From positions 14,068-78,067 of the forward strand of contig JABJNO010000002.1 of NCBI GenBank assembly GCA_018664825.1: a stretch of DNA of 64,000 nucleotides. Direction: 5' to 3'. The notes beneath the pieces were generated by a model, which was not told the DNA's origin, did not search any database, and saw nothing but the letters and a program-made list of their open reading frames with translations. Shown one piece after another: positions 3,735-61,760 of the stretch; the stretch's first letter is position 1, and each line of letters starts with the position of its first letter. The stretch comes from Candidatus Parcubacteria bacterium. GTDB lineage: Bacteria > Patescibacteriota > Patescibacteriia > UBA1558 > GWA2-36-10. The translations under genes were made by a program, and so were the position numbers.

Positions 3735-3953
3735 ATGAAAAACATTTTAAACATTATCCAGATTGTTATTTCTATTCTGTTGATTATTACTGTTTTGATG
3801 CAGCAAAAAGGATCAGGATTAGGAAGTGCTTTTGGTGGAGACTCCGCTGTCTATCGCACCAAAAGAGGAGCTGAAAAATTTATCTTTCGTCTTACTATAG
3901 CATTAGCTATCCTATTTTTAGCTACTGCATTAGCTAGCATTTTTGTTAGCTAA
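3735..3953 (+). CDS. secG: Preprotein translocase subunit SecG
   Basis: 72-aa protein with two TM segments and the SecG glycine-rich loop (QQKGSGLGSAFGG). Confidence 0.75.
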   Translation: MKNILNIIQIVISILLIITVLMQQKGSGLGSAFGGDSAVYRTKRGAEKFIFRLTIALAILFLATALASIFVS

Positions 3954-4010
3954 ACCTAATTATTTAAAACCACAGTTATAAGGTTTTACTCTGAAATAAT
4001 TAAGAAAGGG

Positions 4011-23883: not shown

Positions 23884-23920
23884 AGCGGGCTGGAAAAATT
23901 TCCAGCCCGCTCTTTATTTT
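23884..23920. terminator. Bidirectional intrinsic terminator
   Basis: Perfect 10-bp stem agcgggctgg/ccagcccgct, 8-nt loop, A-run before and T-run after. It lies between convergent genes. Confidence 0.75.
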
Positions 23921-24704
23921 ATAATAATGTATTTTGCCAACTATCCATCTTACCTCCCAGTTTGAGATCTTTTATCCTGTCAATATCAAACATTCTTATA
24001 GCCTGTCGGAGATGACAGTAGGCTTTTATTTTATTTCCGGTAATTCGCTGAACATCAATCTTTCTTGAGGTGGTTTTGCCTGATTCATCCATATACTCTA
24101 TTTCCAACTGATCACCGTCTTTGAGGGCATCATGGACTTTTTGCTCAACTGTCCGACCATTGTTGTTGCCCCAACGAGCAATTATCTTTTCTTTGTGTCC
24201 AGAATTTTGATACCACATATGACCATGCTTCAAACCATAATCATATACTTCTTTGGTGACTTTGACATCATCTAAACAATACCTTATCAGATTGTCCCAA
24301 TCTTCATTGCGGTAATACACGATAGCATCAAGACCAGAGCCAGATTTGCCATAGCCTAGTGTGCTCTGTGCTACACTCTCTAGTTTCAGTCTATGCCCCA
24401 AAGCATGAACTACTTCTTCCAAGATATCCAAGTGAGGTATAGTAGATAAATCAAAATCTTTGTAATATGGCTGAAGAGCGGTATTATCAAAACTCTTACT
24501 ATTGAAACCGATCAACAATTCTGTATTTTTAAATATCTCCAAAAGCTCCCCAAACTCCTCTTCTTTGAAAGCACGATATTGATCTCTATTATAAGAATAA
24601 ATACCAACCACGGATACTTCCATTTTATCAATATGATCATAACCACCGACCTCGTCAAAGGTCTTTTTGGTTTCTAAATCAAATACTATTTTATCTTTTT
24701 TCAT
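23919..24704 (-). CDS. PolB-type (DEDDy) 3'-5' exonuclease fused to a C-terminal WYL-like domain
   Basis: Exo I FDLET, Exo II GFNSKSFDNTAL and Exo III YCLDDV (YxxxD) are all present. The C-terminal ~80 aa (LEIEYMDESGKTTSRKIDVQRITGNKIKAYCHLRQAIRMFDIDRI) fit the WYL-domain core pattern (..WYLvAyc.lrg.fRtFrldRI). Confidence 0.55.
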   Translation of the reverse strand: MKKDKIVFDLETKKTFDEVGGYDHIDKMEVSVVGIYSYNRDQYRAFKEEEFGELLEIFKNTELLIGFNSKSFDNTALQPYYKDFDLSTIPHLDILEEVVHALGHRLKLESVAQSTLGYGKSGSGLDAIVYYRNEDWDNLIRYCLDDVKVTKEVYDYGLKHGHMWYQNSGHKEKIIARWGNNNGRTVEQKVHDALKDGDQLEIEYMDESGKTTSRKIDVQRITGNKIKAYCHLRQAIRMFDIDRIKDLKLGGKMDSWQNTLL

Positions 24705-27968: not shown

Positions 27969-28715
27969 ATGTCCGACAAGAAAATTATTGCCGTTTTGCC
28001 AGCCTACAACGCTGCTAAAACACTAAAGCTAACTTTGGATGATATACCAGAGGGTAGTGTAGACGAAATCATACTCGTAGACGATTGTTCACAGGACAAC
28101 ACAGTAGAAGTGGCCAAACAGCTAGGCATAAAAGTTATTGTTCACGAAAAAAATAAGGGCTATGGTGGCAACCAAAAAACTTGTTATCGCGAAGCTCTCA
28201 AAAGTGGAGCTGATATTGCCATCATGATTCACCCTGACCATCAATACAATCCAAAGTTGGTTCCTCAGATGCTAAAACCACTGATAGACGAAGAGTGTGA
28301 TGCTGTATTTGGATCTAGGATGATCTACAAAAAAGATGCCTTAGCTGGCGGTATGCCAAAATGGAAATTTGCTGCCAATATTTTCCTAACCAGTTTAGAA
28401 AATATTTTATTGGGCACAAAACTAGCAGAATACCACTCAGGATTTAGAGCTTATTCAAAAAAAGCCTTGGAGACTCTACCACTAGAAGAAAACTCAGATA
28501 ATTTTGTTTTTGATACAGAAATCATTGTCCAACTTGTGGCCAATGATTTTAAAATAAAAGAAATCCCTATCAATACAAAATATTTTAAAGATGCCTCAAA
28601 CGTTGGTCTAAAACAAGGCATGAAATATGGTACTGATATATTGCGTACAATGGGCAAATATAAATTGCACCAATGGGGAATCAAAAAAAGATCTCAATTT
28701 AAAAAAGTCACTTAA
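27969..28715 (+). CDS. GT2 glycosyltransferase, polyprenyl-phosphate sugar synthase-like (DPM1/Ppm1-like)
   Basis: VLPAYNAAKTL...DEIILVDDCSQD (DxD-type GT-A); 248 aa with no TM segment. Confidence 0.7.
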   Translation: MSDKKIIAVLPAYNAAKTLKLTLDDIPEGSVDEIILVDDCSQDNTVEVAKQLGIKVIVHEKNKGYGGNQKTCYREALKSGADIAIMIHPDHQYNPKLVPQMLKPLIDEECDAVFGSRMIYKKDALAGGMPKWKFAANIFLTSLENILLGTKLAEYHSGFRAYSKKALETLPLEENSDNFVFDTEIIVQLVANDFKIKEIPINTKYFKDASNVGLKQGMKYGTDILRTMGKYKLHQWGIKKRSQFKKVT

Positions 28716-51892: not shown

Positions 51893-54739
51893 CTATTGGC
51901 CATTCACCTTGTTCTTGGCTTCGGCTAATCGTTTTTTTGTATCCTCTATCACCTGCGGTGGTGCATTGCTGACAAATTTTTCATTGGCTAGCTTGGCTTC
52001 TGTATTTTTAATATATTTTTCCAGATCTTGTTTTTCTTTGTCTGACAATTCTTTGGTCAAATCTATAAATACCTTACTGCTGTTTATGGCTATTGGTTTT
52101 ACATTTACTTTTTTGTCCGTCAGATTGACCCTAGCCATCTTGGCGGCAAGTTCTAGATATTTTTTATCCAAAATTTTACTGTCCAAATTACAATCGGGAA
52201 ATTCAGTTGGCGGTATCTTATTTTCAGCTTTAAGATTTCTTAAACTTACTACCAGTTCTTTGAGTTCAGTAAAATTTGTAATTACATCCTTATCCACTTT
52301 ACCAGCTTTGGGCCACTCTTTGACCATCATTAATTCTTTTTCACCAAATTGCTCCCAAATCACTTCTGTCACAAATGGAATAAAAGGATGACACAAAACA
52401 AGGAGTCTTTCCAAAATATAAAGTAATATCTCTTCTTTGTCTTTTTCTATTTTAGAAATTTCTAAATACCAATCTGCCAAATCATCCCAAGTAAAATGAT
52501 AAAGCTTGGTACCTGCTTCTGAAAAATGAAATTTTTCTAAGTCCTCGCTTATTTCTTTTATAGTTTCGTTAAATTCAGACAAAATCCACTTATCAGCCAG
52601 AGTTTTTGCCCTTGGTTGTTTTTTGACTCTTTTGACGTTGTCTGCACTGGTAAAAATAAATCGAGAAATATTCCAAAGTTTATTTACAAAATTTCTATAA
52701 CCCGCAATCTTGTCTTCATAAAGTCGCATATCTGCTCCTGGTGCAGATCCAATGATCAAAGACAGACGAAGTGCGTCGGTACCAAATTTTTCACTCATTT
52801 TTATCGGATCTATACCATTACCCAAAGACTTGGACATTTTTTTGCCATCCTTATCTCGGATCATACCATGTAGATAAACAGTATCAAATGGCTTTGTTTC
52901 CAAAACATACTCTGTCATCATTATCATCCTAGCTACCCAAAAAAATAAAATATCATAGCCAGTCTCCATTACAGAGCTTGGATGAAATAAATCTAGATCT
53001 GACTTTTTACTATAAACAAAATCATAAGCCCATAAGTCCGTATTATCCGTAATATCCTTGTCTGGATAATATTTTTTGAATGTTTTTTTGAAATCATCTT
53101 TATCCTTATACTCTTCGTGACCCTTTTGTTTGGGATCTACATCTTTAAACTTAATTTTTTGAATATTGGTAATTTTTATATAACCAAAATTTTTCTTTGT
53201 CTGAGTATTTTCCACAACAATAGTTTCACCAATACTATATCCCTTATCTGCCAATCTATATGTTTTGGTTTTTTCTCCACTCTCTACTATCTTGACCAAA
53301 TCTTTATCAAGACCAATTTTGTTTTGTATTGGCCACCCCAAAGTAGAAAAGGTCCAAAGTGAAGATGAAAACCAAGTATCAAGAGTGTCTTTGTCTTGAG
53401 TTAGTTTTTTATTACCAGCTTTTTTGTTTGCTTCAGTTTCATTTGGAGCTACTATCACCTCTCCATCCTCGGTATACCAAACAGGAATCCGATGTCCCCA
53501 CCAAATCTGACGAGAAATACACCAATCATGAAGATTTTCCATCCAATGATAATATGTTTTATCAAATCGCTTTGGTAATATTTCTATATCCCCACCTTTG
53601 ACGGCATTGATAGCCAATTCTTTGAGGCTCTTGCCTCGGCTTGGAATTTTTTTGTTTACCCTGACAAACCATTGTTCAGAAGTAAGTGGCTCAATAGGAG
53701 TATCACAACGATAACAAATAGAAAGATTGTTTTTTATACTATCTATTTTTTCTATTTGACCTGCTTTTTCCAAATCAGCTACAAATTCTCTTCTGGCTTG
53801 CAAAACATTTTTACCTTTGTACTTGCCACCGGTTTTCATGATATGTCCAGACTCATCAATCAGTTTGATAATTTCCAAATCATGCCTTTGAGCAAGCTCA
53901 TAATCAGTTGTACTGTGAGCAGGGGTTACTCCCACTACTCCACTACCAAATCTTTTATCGATTTCTTTATCGGCAATGACTTTTACTTTTATCTTGTGTC
54001 CAGCCAGATCTATATCCAGCTCTTGCCCAACATATTTTTTGTATCTTCGATCACTCGGGTGGACAGCTACACCAGTATCGGCTAGTTTTGTTTCTGGTCT
54101 AGTCGTTGCCACTACAAATGGACCATATTTTATATAATATAGTTTAGCGTCTTGTTCTTTGTGTTCTACTTCATCGTCAGCTAGGGTAGAGGCGCAGCGC
54201 GGACACCAATTGACTATCCGATAATCCCTCTCTATCAAACCGTCGTCATACATTTTGACAAAAGCTTGATTGACCGCCTTTGATAAGCCGTCGTCAAAAG
54301 TATATCTTTCACGAGACCAATCACAACTAGAGCCCATCTTGCGAGTTTGTTTGCGGATGGTACCTTGTGAGCTAGCTACGTATTCTTTGACTCTGCCCAA
54401 AAACTTTTCTCGACCAAGTTTTTTTCTGTCTGTACCCTCGATAGCCAAAATCTTTTCTACCTTTGTCTGGGTAGCAATAGCCGCATGGTCAGTACCTGGC
54501 ACCCAAAGAGCCTTATCGCCCTTGAGGCGGTGGAAACGGACCATTAGGTCTTCGTAGGCCAAAGCAGCGGCATGCCCCAGATGCAAAATACCAGTAGCAT
54601 TTGGTGGTGGCATAGATATGACAAAAGGCTTCCCCTTGGCTTTGAGCTTGTCAGGATCAAAAAGACCAGACTCTTCCCAGGTCTTATAAATATCATCTTC
54701 ATATTTGGTTGGCTCGTAAGCTTTGGCTAATTCTTGCAT
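51893..54739 (-). CDS. valS: Valyl-tRNA synthetase
   Basis: HIGH region PPPNATGILHLGHA, KMSKS, and a C-terminal coiled coil. The start is set at the internal ATG (MQELAKAYEP), because the ORF-track extension runs through the leader terminator. Confidence 0.9.
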   Translation of the reverse strand: MQELAKAYEPTKYEDDIYKTWEESGLFDPDKLKAKGKPFVISMPPPNATGILHLGHAAALAYEDLMVRFHRLKGDKALWVPGTDHAAIATQTKVEKILAIEGTDRKKLGREKFLGRVKEYVASSQGTIRKQTRKMGSSCDWSRERYTFDDGLSKAVNQAFVKMYDDGLIERDYRIVNWCPRCASTLADDEVEHKEQDAKLYYIKYGPFVVATTRPETKLADTGVAVHPSDRRYKKYVGQELDIDLAGHKIKVKVIADKEIDKRFGSGVVGVTPAHSTTDYELAQRHDLEIIKLIDESGHIMKTGGKYKGKNVLQARREFVADLEKAGQIEKIDSIKNNLSICYRCDTPIEPLTSEQWFVRVNKKIPSRGKSLKELAINAVKGGDIEILPKRFDKTYYHWMENLHDWCISRQIWWGHRIPVWYTEDGEVIVAPNETEANKKAGNKKLTQDKDTLDTWFSSSLWTFSTLGWPIQNKIGLDKDLVKIVESGEKTKTYRLADKGYSIGETIVVENTQTKKNFGYIKITNIQKIKFKDVDPKQKGHEEYKDKDDFKKTFKKYYPDKDITDNTDLWAYDFVYSKKSDLDLFHPSSVMETGYDILFFWVARMIMMTEYVLETKPFDTVYLHGMIRDKDGKKMSKSLGNGIDPIKMSEKFGTDALRLSLIIGSAPGADMRLYEDKIAGYRNFVNKLWNISRFIFTSADNVKRVKKQPRAKTLADKWILSEFNETIKEISEDLEKFHFSEAGTKLYHFTWDDLADWYLEISKIEKDKEEILLYILERLLVLCHPFIPFVTEVIWEQFGEKELMMVKEWPKAGKVDKDVITNFTELKELVVSLRNLKAENKIPPTEFPDCNLDSKILDKKYLELAAKMARVNLTDKKVNVKPIAINSSKVFIDLTKELSDKEKQDLEKYIKNTEAKLANEKFVSNAPPQVIEDTKKRLAEAKNKVNGQ

Positions 54740-54749
54740 AATTTTGTTT

Positions 54750-54930
54750 AAAAAATAAAAACGCAAAATAATTGCGTTTAAGGGCCCAAAAAATTGGACG
54801 GTACCACCTTAATTTGTTCTTGATTTTGACGCTATAACGGGCGCACCCCGACAGGTTCTACCTTGGTTCTTCCTGCAGCTCTTCGAGTGACATGAATCTC
54901 GAATCAAACGCTTTTTATTTGATTATAGTA
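54750..54930 (-). promoter_or_regulatory. Candidate T-box riboswitch leader (Val specifier GUC) with intrinsic terminator, upstream of valS
   Basis: The minus strand reads AAAUUAAGGUGGUACCGUCC (54815-54796), matching the T-box consensus AAUUAGGGUGGNACCGCG. The upstream hairpin UUCGAG-AUUCAUGUCA-CUCGAA presents GUC followed by A. A terminator hairpin ACGCAA-UUAUU-UUGCGU plus a U-run (54777-54750) ends 11 nt before the valS ATG. Confidence 0.55.
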
Positions 54931-55388: not shown

Positions 55389-56432
55389 TTATTTTACTAA
55401 TTGCCAATTTGATTTTGGTTGCAAGTTAAAAATTTCTTTTCCTTGCAAAATGTCTGCTTGTTTATTTTGTATCTTATAGTATGCGGCAGCCGCTATCATA
55501 GCTGCATTGTCTCCTGTATATTTTATCTCCGGAAAAAAGAAAGGCATGTCCAATTTTTTTGCTTCTACTGATAATCTACTTTTTAGATTTGAGTTGGCAG
55601 CCACTCCTCCGGCCAACATAATAGACTTTACACCAAACTCTCCGACTGCCCTGATGGTTTTGTGTACCAATACATCAGTCACTGCCGTTTGAAAACTAGC
55701 GCAAACATCTTTGACATCTTTTTTGTTTATATTTTTCTTTTTCTCAAGTGTATAGAGCACAGCTGTCTTGAGTCCCGCTAAACTAAAGTCATAATTATCC
55801 TTATCCATCATTGGGCGAGGCAACTTATATGCTTTGTCATCACCCTCTTCTGCTAATCTACTGACTATAGGACCGCCAGGATAGCCCAGGTTCATCATCT
55901 TGGCTACTTTGTCATAAGCCTCACCAACGGCATCATCCAAGGTCTGTCCAATCAATTGATAGTCTCCATGTCCTTTCATCAAAACTAGCTCCGTATGCCC
56001 TCCTGAGACGATAAGTACTAGACTTGGAAAATATTTTTGAGAGTTTTTTACCAATTCATCATTTGATAACCAATTTGAATACACGTGTCCTTCCATATGG
56101 TTGATTGGCACCAAAGGTAATTTGTTAATATAAGCCAAGGTTTTGGCTACGGTCATACCCAAAAGCAAAGAAGTAATCAAACCAGGGCCACTTGTGACCG
56201 CTAGATAATCAACGTCCTTTAGCTTATCTTTACCAAGTGTGTCATCCACCAATGGGATAATAGTCTCCAGATGTTTACGAGCAGCTACCTCTGGTACAAC
56301 GCCGCCGTATTTTTTGTGTATGTCTATCTGAGAATAAATAGCGTTTTTCTCCAAAATCAAAGAATCACCACCACCCTCGATCTTGGCAACGGCTGTTTCG
56401 TCACACGATGATTCTATAGCTAATACTTTCAT
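55389..56432 (-). CDS. tsaD: tRNA N6-adenosine threonylcarbamoyltransferase TsaD
   Basis: MKVLAIESSCDETAVA N-terminus and the HMEGH metal site; 347 aa. Confidence 0.9.
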   Translation of the reverse strand: MKVLAIESSCDETAVAKIEGGGDSLILEKNAIYSQIDIHKKYGGVVPEVAARKHLETIIPLVDDTLGKDKLKDVDYLAVTSGPGLITSLLLGMTVAKTLAYINKLPLVPINHMEGHVYSNWLSNDELVKNSQKYFPSLVLIVSGGHTELVLMKGHGDYQLIGQTLDDAVGEAYDKVAKMMNLGYPGGPIVSRLAEEGDDKAYKLPRPMMDKDNYDFSLAGLKTAVLYTLEKKKNINKKDVKDVCASFQTAVTDVLVHKTIRAVGEFGVKSIMLAGGVAANSNLKSRLSVEAKKLDMPFFFPEIKYTGDNAAMIAAAAYYKIQNKQADILQGKEIFNLQPKSNWQLVK

Positions 56433-56559: not shown

Positions 56560-57201
56560 ATGTCTAGGAAAAAATTGCAAAGGTTTGCAGAAACCGAAAA
56601 ATTCCCAAACTTGGCCCAGGTGCATCAGCCTGACATCAAAGAAAAATTGGCCGATTTTTTGGAGGACAACAATTCTATAATATTAGAGCTCGCCTGTGGT
56701 AAAGGAGCCTATACTCTAGCCCTAGCCAAAAAACTTCCTCACATAAAATTTATCGGTATAGATATACAAGGTGAACGTCTTTGGTCTGGAGCCAAACAGG
56801 CTATAGAACAAAACTTGAAAAATGTTTTTTTCTTGAGGATTCAAATAGAAAATTTAGCTGAATATTTTACAAAAAACTCTATCAACGAAATCTTGATCAC
56901 TTTTCCTGATCCTTTCCCTAGAGAAAAACAATTACGCAAAAGATTGACCTCTTATAGATTTTTAGAAATATACAAGCAACTTATAAAAGAAGATGGCCTG
57001 ATCCATTTGAAAACTGATGATGAAAATCTTTTTGATTTTTCAGTTGAGACTATACAAAATTTTGGGGGCACCATCAAAACCAATACCAAAGATATTTATT
57101 CTAAAATAAATATTGATCCCATACTAGAAATAAAAACTTACTATGAACATATGCACCTCAAAGCTGGGAAAAAGATAAATTATCTCAAGTTTAGCCTCTA
57201 A
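56560..57201 (+). CDS. trmB: tRNA (guanine46-N7)-methyltransferase
   Basis: SAM motif ILELACGKGAYTLALAK, 213 aa, TrmB-like. Confidence 0.8.
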   Translation: MSRKKLQRFAETEKFPNLAQVHQPDIKEKLADFLEDNNSIILELACGKGAYTLALAKKLPHIKFIGIDIQGERLWSGAKQAIEQNLKNVFFLRIQIENLAEYFTKNSINEILITFPDPFPREKQLRKRLTSYRFLEIYKQLIKEDGLIHLKTDDENLFDFSVETIQNFGGTIKTNTKDIYSKINIDPILEIKTYYEHMHLKAGKKINYLKFSL

Positions 57202-57203
57202 GT

Positions 57204-57232
57204 TTGACATCATTTTTAAAGCAGAGTATAAT
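57204..57232 (+). promoter_or_regulatory. Perfect consensus sigma70 promoter (TTGACA-17-TATAAT)
   Basis: TTGACA at 57204-57209 and TATAAT at 57227-57232, immediately after the trmB stop. Confidence 0.6.
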
Positions 57233-57320
57233 GTTTATCAGAATGTTAAAAATTATACAACATTTCAAAACTTGTCCGCCAAACCGCTGGTTAAAATTTC
57301 CAAAAAATATTATGAGTTAG

Positions 57321-57345
57321 TCGTTCCGAAAGGAACGATTTTTTT
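57321..57345 (+). terminator. Intrinsic terminator/attenuator 27 nt upstream of the AsnA-like gene
   Basis: Stem tcgttcc/ggaacga, GAAA tetraloop, ttttttt. Confidence 0.7.
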
Positions 57346-57371
57346 ATACCTAAAAATTAACAAAAAAGTGT

Positions 57372-58376
57372 ATGAAAAAAGAAAACACCGCCCGCCTTGA
57401 GGGCTTTGTACTCAAGGAAGCAGAAGATTTTTTTCGCGACCAGGGTTTTACTCCTCTTTTTCCGCCAAAGATTGTGCGGGCTAGTGGAGCCTGTGAAAAC
57501 ATCGACACTCTTTTTGAAATAAGTGTTGATAAAGATCACAAGTGGTTTGATAGAAATGCCTACCTTTCTCAAACTGGGCAACTCTATCTAGAGGCCATGG
57601 TACCATCTTTGAAAAAAGTATATTGCATTGGACCATCTTTTCGGGCTGAACCAAAAATCGACAATAGACACCTAACAGAGTTTACTATGTTAGAGATTGA
57701 GTTTGCGGGAAGCTTTGAAGATCTCTTGGTCTCCCAAGAAGACTTGGTACATTACCTGGCTCAGAAAGTTTCTAATCACCCTAGAGCCAAAGAGGATTTT
57801 GGTCTCAGTGACAATGATCTAATCCGTCTCAAAAAATGTCCATCAAAGTTTAAAAGATTTACCTATGACCAAGCAATCAAGAAACTTCAAGACATGGGAG
57901 AAGATATAAAATGGGGAGATGACATATCTAGTCAAAGAGAAAAATTACTAATCGCAGCGGCTGACAATCAGCCGTTATTTATTACCCATTATCCTGACCC
58001 AATGTACAAAGAACACGATGATATCGAAGTAGAAAAGTTTTTCAACATGCTTCCATCAAAAGATAACCCAGGCAGAGTCCTGAGCTCTGACCTTATACTA
58101 CCTTTTAGTGGTGAATCTGTAGGAGCTGCCGCTAGAGTCCATGTTTTGGATGAGCTAGTCAGGCGCCTAAAAAACTCTAAGATGTATAAACGCCTTGAAA
58201 AGAAAGGTGGAGATATATCGGATTTTGAATGGTATATCAACCAAATCAAAGAAAATGGAGCAGTACCACACGCTGGTTGTGGCTTTGGTATGTCTAGAAT
58301 CCTACAATGGATAAGTGGTAAATCCAGTATCGTAGATTGCGTCACTTTCCCAGCCAACAAAGGCAATATTATTTAA
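57372..58376 (+). CDS. Class II aaRS catalytic-core-only protein, AsnRS/AspRS-like (archaeal-type asparagine synthetase A-like)
   Basis: Motif 2 GPSFRAE. The C-terminal motif 3 region (GAVPHAGCGFGMSRILQWISGKSSIVDCVTFP) resembles AsnRS [21 protein letters not shown]...VRDVIPFP. There is no anticodon-binding domain (334 aa). Confidence 0.6.
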   Translation: MKKENTARLEGFVLKEAEDFFRDQGFTPLFPPKIVRASGACENIDTLFEISVDKDHKWFDRNAYLSQTGQLYLEAMVPSLKKVYCIGPSFRAEPKIDNRHLTEFTMLEIEFAGSFEDLLVSQEDLVHYLAQKVSNHPRAKEDFGLSDNDLIRLKKCPSKFKRFTYDQAIKKLQDMGEDIKWGDDISSQREKLLIAAADNQPLFITHYPDPMYKEHDDIEVEKFFNMLPSKDNPGRVLSSDLILPFSGESVGAAARVHVLDELVRRLKNSKMYKRLEKKGGDISDFEWYINQIKENGAVPHAGCGFGMSRILQWISGKSSIVDCVTFPANKGNII

Positions 58377-61685: not shown

Positions 61686-61760
61686 TGGTGACCCCACGGA
61701 GAATCGAACTCCGGTTGCTAGGATGAAAACCTAGTGTCCTAACCACTAGACGATGGGGCC
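61686..61760 (-). tRNA. tRNA-Glu (anticodon UUC), CCA encoded
   Basis: Minus strand GGCCCCATCGTCTAGTGGTTAGGACACTAGGTTTTCATCCTAGCAACCGGAGTTCGATTCTCCGTGGGGTCACCA folds into a cloverleaf (7-bp acceptor stem, 4-bp D stem, 5-bp anticodon and T stems) with anticodon loop TTTTCAT. Confidence 0.85.

Follow-up and report, generated by a model that had tools for sequence, protein, structure and literature searches.

A candidate ribosome-occlusion attenuator in front of an AsnRS-like catalytic-core gene in Patescibacteria

Introduction

In Escherichia coli, pyrBI and pyrE are controlled by UTP-sensitive attenuators based on the coupling of transcription and translation; the leader open reading frame (ORF) of pyrBI runs through the attenuator, and the upstream ORF of pyrE stops just before it. 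Here we describe a leader of this general kind in front of a gene for a protein related to asparaginyl-tRNA synthetase (AsnRS), at 57204-58376 on the forward strand of a 64,000-nucleotide stretch of DNA from a Candidatus Parcubacteria bacterium (assembly GCA_018664825.1, contig JABJNO010000002.1, positions 14,068 to 78,067; this whole stretch is referred to below as the window). The leader is most probably an on/off switch that has not been described before, although its general type is known, and in the loci compared it travels with the gene across Patescibacteria, including loci of different genomic context. We consider it probable, with considerable reserve, that it is an attenuator of the pyrBI/pyrE type, working by ribosome occlusion and controlling a tRNA-independent, AsnRS-derived enzyme similar to the AS-AR protein of Pyrococcus.

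Like the pyrBI and pyrE leaders, the Patescibacterial one has an ORF that would be translated to or through an intrinsic terminator, so that a close ribosome would prevent the hairpin; no antiterminator is involved, and a U/A-rich tract lies upstream. It differs in that its upstream ORF (uORF) is probably leaderless, its target is an AsnRS-like gene, and some clades carry tandem terminators. A leaderless short first ORF is also found in mycobacteria, where polycysteine uORFs form the first cistron and control the downstream gene by their own translation (bioRxiv 10.1101/834739). Those uORFs carry runs of Cys codons, whereas the Patescibacterial leaders have no conserved run and end in a canonical intrinsic terminator. 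In the classical attenuators (trp, his, phe, leu and thr) a leader ORF is likewise followed by an intrinsic terminator before a gene of amino-acid metabolism or translation, but the Patescibacterial leaders are without codon runs, antiterminator or anti-antiterminator, Shine-Dalgarno (SD) sequence and Rfam match. A T-box or riboswitch leader was considered and rejected, as neither the window nor 20 further loci gave an Rfam match and the sequence of the leader body is variable.

As for the protein, two described systems are close. AsnRS2/AS-AR of Pyrococcus (structures 1nnh and 3p8t) is, like the window protein, a class IIb catalytic core standing alone, about 300 residues long, annotated as AsnRS and with its adenylate motifs kept; it is, however, distant from the window protein (E 1e-8 and 5e-7, against 1e-46 for AsnRS). 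We take AS-AR to be derived from aspartyl-tRNA synthetase (AspRS), whereas the window family looks AsnRS-derived. AsnRS itself (NF003037, TIGR00457, PDB 1x54) is the best match in sequence and fold and has motifs 1-3, QLYLE and the GxxxR residues in common with the window protein, which differs from it in the missing anticodon-binding domain, a score below the cut-offs, altered surroundings of the pocket and a different motif-2 loop.

Organisation of the leader and its gene

The region is best explained as one transcription unit, made up of a promoter, a putatively translated leader, an intrinsic terminator and a structural gene. Its features are as follows.

57204..57209, + strand: -35 hexamer TTGACA, 12/12 in the consensus scan
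57227..57232, + strand: -10 hexamer TATAAT, with a 17-nt spacer to the -35 hexamer
57239..57241, + strand: probable transcription start, placed from the position of the -10 box only, 2-4 nt 5' of the mini-ORF AUG
57243..57317, + strand: mini-ORF of 25 codons, MLKIIQHFKTCPPNRWLKFPKNIMS, with its TAG stop at 57318-57320
57286..57311, + strand: AU-rich nucleotide block GCTGGTTAAAATTTCCAAAAAATATT (also written GCTGGTTAAAATTTTTYCAAAAAWAT), directly 5' of the hairpin and conserved in relatives
57319..57345, + strand: intrinsic terminator, with a 9-bp stem at 57319-57340, a GAAA loop and T7 at 57339-57345
57346..57371, + strand: A-rich spacer and initiation region without SD sequence (…TTAACAAAAAAGTGT-ATG), 26 nt
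57372..58376, + strand: AsnRS-like class IIb catalytic core of 334 aa, from the ORF and its profile and fold matches

The preliminary description of this DNA had reported a textbook TTGACA-17-TATAAT promoter, and in fact the 12/12 sigma-70 pattern occurs a single time in the window, with a chance expectation of 0.01 from shuffles; TTGAC-like -35 boxes are found again at the equivalent position in homologous loci. The -10 box ends 10 nt before the ATG of the mini-ORF (57243), and the RGAATG context of this start is kept among close relatives. The 25-codon mini-ORF had been said to stop at the base of a strong terminator stem, and both halves of this statement stand: the final two bases of the TAG are the first two of the stem, and the hairpin, with the core TCGTTCC-GAAA-GGAACGA, has a folding energy of -11.9 kcal/mol alone. 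The full leader folds at -20.6 kcal/mol (z -2.6 against shuffled sequences), to which the terminator is the main contributor. The leader had been put at about 90 nt; from the probable start (~57240) to the end of the U-tract it comes to about 106 nt. No second promoter is apparent by eye between the terminator and the ATG of the AsnRS-like gene. Moreover, the combination of a promoter, an ATG and an ORF ending at the stem was found at only one of 74 terminator-like sites in the window, namely in this leader, and the layout is thus not a product of chance.

Recurrence of the leader among Patescibacteria

We gathered 164 loci carrying the gene from species-representative genomes and metagenomes (numbered with the prefix L). 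L001 is syntenic with the window, with a protein 86% identical and the same trmB neighbour, while in L002-L004 (protein 81% identical) the neighbours differ and the upstream gene is divergent. All of these share the TTGACA-17-TATAAT promoter, an ATG 10 nt on, a frame of 23-25 codons, the identical hairpin and a 30-nt spacer. At more distant loci the layout is retained and the hairpin sequences are unrelated; 38 different pentamers, varying by lineage, form the inner-stem arms of the terminators across the family. Of 84 distinct Patescibacterial upstream regions, 56 have a hairpin with T-run 10-70 nt before the start, compared with 21 of 344 neighbouring genes, and within 10-200 nt the corresponding figures are 77/84 and 54/344. 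The distance from the stem end to the start codon has a median of 36 nt and a lower quartile of 26 nt.

A promoter-first search, which asked for a sigma-70-like promoter of at least 9/12 with an ATG 5-12 nt beyond its -10 box and a downstream terminator, gave 59 upstream regions. We also scanned 1.4 Mb of Patescibacterial loci blindly on both strands for the whole architecture, which gave 62 matches, 59 of them preceding the AsnRS-like gene and one preceding an aspartate carbamoyltransferase gene. The architecture was not found upstream of the archaeal members of the protein family or of full-length AsnRS genes; it is specific to the AsnRS-like gene. Rfam searches of the window leader and 20 homologous loci, at both gathering and permissive thresholds, returned no relevant family (the best leader-type match was Phe_leader, 15 bits with a cut-off of 55), and we found nothing specific in the literature on the protein family or the leader in the Candidate Phyla Radiation (CPR).

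Some loci have inserts of 100-265 nt between the terminator and the start codon (L009 ~3860-3980, L100 ~2180-2500, L025, L098 and L128). Such inserts often hold an inverted repeat resembling CATTGCGAGGAG…GCAATC, which has no Rfam match.

An open frame with a drifting peptide

For the mini-ORF we used a non-redundant set of 49 leaders (<80% identity). The ATG lies 5-12 nt after the -10 box, at 10 nt in 24 leaders and at 7-8 nt in 18, and 43 of the 49 fall between 7 and 10 nt. From this spacing we infer that transcription begins on the AUG or no more than a few nucleotides from it, and that translation initiation is leaderless or nearly so. The genome as a whole is consistent with this: an SD-like word precedes only 2 of the 48 window ORFs of at least 120 aa, and TATAAT stands 6-10 nt before the ATG of several genes, for example 23919-24704 (-), 55389-56432 (-) and 27969-28715 (+), so that many mRNAs of the organism appear to be leaderless.

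The frame that begins at the promoter-proximal ATG is open to the first stem or beyond in 46/49 leaders, while the other two frames reach the stem in 4 and 15 of 49 and composition-matched shuffles do so in 24.5%. The binomial P of 6e-25 is indicative, since kinship among the leaders is only partly removed. The mini-ORF is thus selected as an open frame reaching the terminator. Its peptide evolves almost neutrally and its sequence is not conserved: 67 alignable leader pairs differ by 114 synonymous and 428 non-synonymous codon changes, the differences at codon positions 1, 2 and 3 number 220, 268 and 322, and the window and L001 mini-ORFs alone are separated by 3 synonymous and 7 non-synonymous changes. 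Asn codons make up 5.2% of the leader frame, against 6.9% in the other frames, and hence are not enriched overall. The stop of the uORF is at the stem base in 15, within the hairpin in 14 and past the last terminator in 17 of 48 leaders; its position varies among close relatives and sometimes overlaps the main ATG. In some clades the uORF reads through two tandem terminators.

Among relatives whose proteins are 65-100% identical, the AU-rich block is the stretch of the leader body that is conserved best. It is read in different frames at different loci, as C-TGG-TTA-AAA-TTT in the window and CTG-GTT-AAA-ATT in L091, while AAA-AAT-ATA in L002 matches A-AAA-TAT-AT in L086, which indicates that the constraint is on the nucleic acid and not on the peptide. 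A+T climbs to about 75% across the 20 nt preceding the stem in all clades. The block may serve as a pause site or as the A-tract of the terminator.

One mini-ORF is interrupted: that of L146 (~2340-2400) has an in-frame TAA at codon 7, and an in-frame ATG two codons later restores a peptide like that of L016. It is either a decaying leader or one in which the second ATG is used.

The AsnRS-like protein

The sole Pfam match of the 334-aa protein is tRNA-synt_2 (PF00152), at residues 4-329 with E 1.7e-48. The preliminary description had held that the anticodon-binding domain is missing, and this is confirmed: the AsnRS model is matched only at positions 133-448 of 451, which leaves out the N-terminal OB-fold, and the frame upstream of the ATG is open for just 6 codons. 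More than 100 homologues, 330-345 aa in length, have the same core-only architecture. A separate OB-fold or N-domain partner, or a second class IIb synthetase, was not found in the window or in 700 kb of flanking sequence, a search of low power.

Relationships were ranked by the scores of hidden Markov models (HMMs), PDB sequence matches and fold matches. The AsnRS models NF003037 and TIGR00457 gave 216.4 bits (cut-off 414) and 206.3 bits (cut-off 342.6), the non-discriminating AspRS model gave 159 bits, and the best of the archaeal asparagine synthetase A models (NF005052-NF005055) was NF005052 with 102.8 bits and a cut-off of 368. On these last models eight archaeal members of the family scored 87-156 bits, below cut-off, and the archaeal members reach no curated cut-off. 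In the PDB, AsnRS of P. horikoshii (E 1e-46) is followed by archaeal AspRS (~5e-27), with 1nnh and 3p8t far behind. An AlphaFold model (predicted local distance difference test 78, predicted template modelling score 0.81) was used for a fold search, in which the top 32 PDB matches are all AsnRS, then archaeal AspRS; AS-AR and bacterial AsnA structures are absent from the top 50. The earlier designation as an AsnA-type protein therefore survives in part. The protein is a catalytic-core-only relative of AsnRS, but "AsnA-type" is an analogy and not a demonstrated membership, since no curated cut-off is reached and AsnRS is far closer than 1nnh or 3p8t. Two other identities that the preliminary description had named as possible refutations, the lysyl ligase EpmA and a pseudogene, do not apply: the EpmA/GenX models score far below their cut-offs (TIGR00462 34.3 against 286.9, NF006828 26.6 against 264), and many well-conserved homologues of the same length speak against a pseudogene.

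There are more than 800 homologues. The best 120 are 325-382 aa long, most of them 330-345 aa, and wherever an organism is named for one of these 120 it belongs to Patescibacteria or to unclassified bacteria; the source labels include "amino acid--tRNA ligase-related protein", "asparaginyl-tRNA synthetase" and "hypothetical". Mean column identity is 62% among 20 diverse members from Parcubacteria. The family also occurs in DPANN, Bathyarchaeia and Thermoproteales (37-47% identity, 298-348 aa), and full-length AsnRS of Thermotogota and others comes next with 33-38% identity. Judged by its profiles and residues, this is a large uncurated family, related to yet distinct from AsnRS and AS-AR.

We further compared the residues of 90 Patescibacterial and 32 archaeal members with 13 full-length AsnRS. 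Motifs 1-3 and the adenylate-forming residues (P32, R91, E93, R99, H100, E248, R255 and G302-R309) are invariant, as are the motifs FRAE...RH and GxGxGxxR in the family. An AsnRS-type pocket is kept, comprising QLYLE with Glu74, plus Arg255, and the side-chain pair Glu74/Arg255 is invariant. In the motif-2 loop Asp97 is invariant (FRAEPxxDxRH), in contrast to the invariant Thr in the basic loop of AsnRS (FRAEKSKTRRH). Other invariants specific to the family are a two-residue insertion giving GACEN, KFFNM for KAFYM, GAA(A/E)R for GGSQR and HAGCG for HSGFG, and these changes cluster round the amino-acid pocket; Cys41 and Cys303 are invariant in the family and absent from AsnRS. We read the protein as AsnRS-derived, with a remodelled amino-acid site and probably a weakened tRNA-acceptor surface.

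Proposed mechanism and alternatives

Transcription would start 2-4 nt 5' of the AUG at 57243. A ribosome would load on this 5'-terminal AUG and translate 25 codons, up to a stop that together with the last sense codons abuts the 5' arm of the terminator. If the ribosome is near RNA polymerase as the 3' arm emerges, its footprint would hold the 5' arm single-stranded and block the hairpin, and polymerase would continue into the gene 26 nt downstream; if the ribosome is late or absent, the hairpin would form and the leader RNA of about 106 nt would be released. An antiterminator would play no part, and the logic would be that of the E. coli pyrBI and pyrE attenuators. Candidate inputs are general translational capacity, the supply of aminoacyl-tRNA, or NTP-sensitive (nucleoside triphosphate) pausing in the AU-rich block. 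The regulated protein would be a dimeric, adenylate-forming, AsnRS-derived enzyme, most likely tRNA-independent, which by analogy with Pyrococcus AsnRS2/AS-AR would form asparagine from aspartate, ATP and ammonia. The start site, leaderless initiation, termination and the occlusion step are all deduced from the DNA.

An antiterminator was looked for in each leader with a duplex test, which replaced RNAalifold for this question, and with the 5' arm the leader segments form no better duplex than shuffled sequence does (mean z -0.21, with 3/48 leaders below -2). RNAalifold on 14 close leaders had given no consensus structure, a weak result because MAFFT misaligned the unrelated stems. The lack of an antiterminator and of a conserved structure, together with the variable uORF stops and the tandem terminators that are read through, favours ribosome occlusion. 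Transcription attenuation, which the preliminary description had suggested, is thus strongly supported by the recurrence of the leader in divergent Patescibacteria, although the attenuator is not of the classical amino-acid-codon type.

Several observations weigh against this reading. By the promoter and ATG criteria 25 of the 84 upstream regions gave nothing, and the -35 box is weak in some, for example in L012; in about a quarter of the loci the terminator is 100-265 nt from the start codon, with extra sequence between. The leader could also be a constitutive damper, and Asn codons are somewhat commoner in the 7 codons before the stem, which leaves room for an Asn-specific effect. On the side of the protein, every measure places true AsnRS, and not characterised AsnA, nearest to it, and in 21 loci gatB is conserved as a neighbour upstream. 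Moreover, all AsnA-encoding genomes known in 2008 use AsnRS, not GatCAB, for Asn-tRNA (review PMC2330236).

Other explanations of the leader were weighed against ribosome occlusion. If scarce Asn-tRNA made a ribosome stall on an Asn codon (AAT at 57306-57308 in the window), the stalled ribosome would mask the 5' arm and the enzyme would be induced, a logic that suits an asparagine synthetase. Asn ranks second among the residues at codons -1 and -2 before the stem (5 and 8 of about 48) and makes up 10-16% at several of the positions -7 to -1, compared with 5.2% overall, and many leaders end in KNI, FSN or FIN directly before the stop. We nevertheless hold such Asn-specific attenuation to be quite improbable, given the overall frequency of Asn already mentioned and the fact that L018 and L010 have no Asn codon and L005, L087 and L019 none near the stem. 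The Asn codon is rather a by-product of the conserved nucleotide block, since AAAAATATAT is read as K-N-I in L002 but as Q-K-Y-I in the close relatives L086, L091 and L092, and the small excess before the stem follows the AAAAATAT motif; in the window the codon begins 13 nt before the stem, which, going by ribosome footprints, would be too distant for a stalled ribosome to melt it. A nascent-peptide arrest sensor of the TnaC/SpeFL type, in which the peptide and a small molecule in the tunnel would stall the ribosome near the stop and so block the terminator, agrees with the 29 of 48 leaders whose stop codon lies at the stem base or in the hairpin or loop, and with the many Arg(CGT)-stop endings inside the loop; one clade has the leader MAIRKKxHHFGDGxQxARxxFNFDFxIPR-stop, which may be superficially like E. 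coli SpeFL. This we regard as very improbable. The substitution pattern and the frame shifts of the conserved block described above speak against a SpeFL-like or otherwise conserved peptide, the uORF runs past the terminator in 17/48 leaders, and the Arg-stop endings arise from the G+C-rich stem sequence (CCCGT-TAA). The element might also regulate nothing, being a constitutive partial terminator, an insulator, an RNA-stability element or an independent upstream gene for a small RNA or small protein, and no input signal has been identified; the window hairpin could also stop read-through from trmB, which ends at 57201, and with a strong terminator behind a strong promoter, an RNA of about 106 nt would be abundant. 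Such an absence of regulation seems to us improbable to much the same degree as sensing by Asn codons, because the element stays with the gene family in changing contexts, even beside a divergent upstream gene, keeps its orientation and usually lies 20-40 nt from the start codon, where no second promoter fits between terminator and ATG. No Rfam family matches, and a frame that stays open while its peptide drifts would be expected neither of a small RNA nor of a functional small protein. The independent small RNA that the preliminary description had offered as an alternative is unlikely in particular, as conservation is confined to the AU-rich block and the hairpin, and the element is always found directly before the gene.

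For the protein, an asparagine synthetase like AS-AR is the most likely function and a plausible one by the precedent of AsnRS2, the core-only AsnRS paralogue of Pyrococcus, which is an asparagine synthetase (PMC2821294). It could instead be a working AsnRS-type enzyme without its own anticodon domain, perhaps acting with GatCAB, or a ligase of Asn or Asp to an acceptor other than tRNA. The nearness of genuine AsnRS in sequence and fold, the invariant pair Glu74/Arg255, the strong conservation of the family across Parcubacteria, the gatB neighbour and other tRNA-related genes around the gene, and the invariant Cys41 and Cys303 that AsnRS does not have all fit such an enzyme. We think it unlikely all the same. 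Class IIb enzymes recognise their tRNAs chiefly by the anticodon, and no OB-fold partner was seen in the window or its 700 kb flanks. In addition, the basic character of the motif-2 loop of AsnRS is lost, gatB is required for Gln-tRNA in most bacteria anyway, and the one characterised core-only AsnRS paralogue is the asparagine synthetase just cited. Rather less likely still, in our view, is a combined form, in which the "AsnRS" of Patescibacteria and DPANN is this core-only protein and not an asparagine synthetase, serving as the sole AsnRS-type enzyme, perhaps on tRNA presented by GatCAB, or as a non-tRNA ligase, with the leader as a general coupling sensor that limits expression to translating cells. 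If true, it would amount to a regulatory principle peculiar to Patescibacteria, which would translate without SD sequences and from leaderless mRNAs. The best reading is that the Patescibacterial form of the leader is new and that attenuation by ribosome occlusion, to which it would belong, is a known kind.

Neighbouring genes and other observations

The upstream neighbours in the window are valS, tsaE, tsaD and trmB. In the clade whose proteins are 45-67% identical to that of the window, the gene order is tmk, gatB, a variable gene and the AsnRS-like gene, with miaA and miaB on the opposite strand; this synteny is seen in L007, L010, L011, L038, L062, L066, L102, L107, L142 and 12 more loci. 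In 21 loci gatB precedes the AsnRS-like gene on its own strand, and in 19 miaA lies downstream of it.

A tRNA-Glu gene lies directly 3' of the AsnRS-like gene on the same strand in L111 (3603-3674), L126 (3647-3721) and L145 (3660-3731), and in the window a tRNA-Glu(UUC) gene is found at 61686-61760 (-), 3.3 kb downstream on the opposite strand. A linkage to tRNA-Asn was considered and rejected, as the neighbouring tRNAs in the loci checked are Ala, Glu, Leu, Cys, Met, Gly and Arg, and never Asn.

The aspartate carbamoyltransferase gene found by the blind scan belongs to L011 (2631-3662; also in L108), where it sits just upstream of the AsnRS-like gene, and its product scores 273 bits on TIGR00670, above the cut-off of 237. 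Its leader (2426-2570) has TTGACT-17-TATAAT, an ATG (2463) 7 nt on and a 25-codon ORF with its stop at the terminator base; the carbamoyltransferase gene, unlike the AsnRS-like one, has a GGAGG SD sequence. Aspartate carbamoyltransferase is a gene class under such attenuation in E. coli, and this leader suggests that the pyrBI principle is present in Patescibacteria.

The valyl-tRNA synthetase of the window (51893-54766, -) has an ASCH domain (PF04266, 30 bits, cut-off 21.2) at residues 478-560, inserted inside its class I catalytic domain. For the orthologue in L001, the precomputed Pfam list gives His_Phos_1 at the corresponding place.

Implications

Patescibacteria (CPR) cannot be cultivated alone, and their gene regulation is almost unstudied; the leader is an apparent phylum-wide cis-regulatory element that can be recognised from sequence. 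It would imply that these organisms use intrinsic terminators, leaderless mRNA translation and ribosome-polymerase coupling as means of control, and a minimal attenuator with neither an antiterminator nor a conserved peptide may offer a clean model for control by ribosome occlusion. If the protein is an asparagine synthetase, or another enzyme than AsnRS, any metabolic reconstruction of CPR or DPANN in which it counts as AsnRS would be wrong, and the route to Asn-tRNA in these organisms would need to be re-examined.

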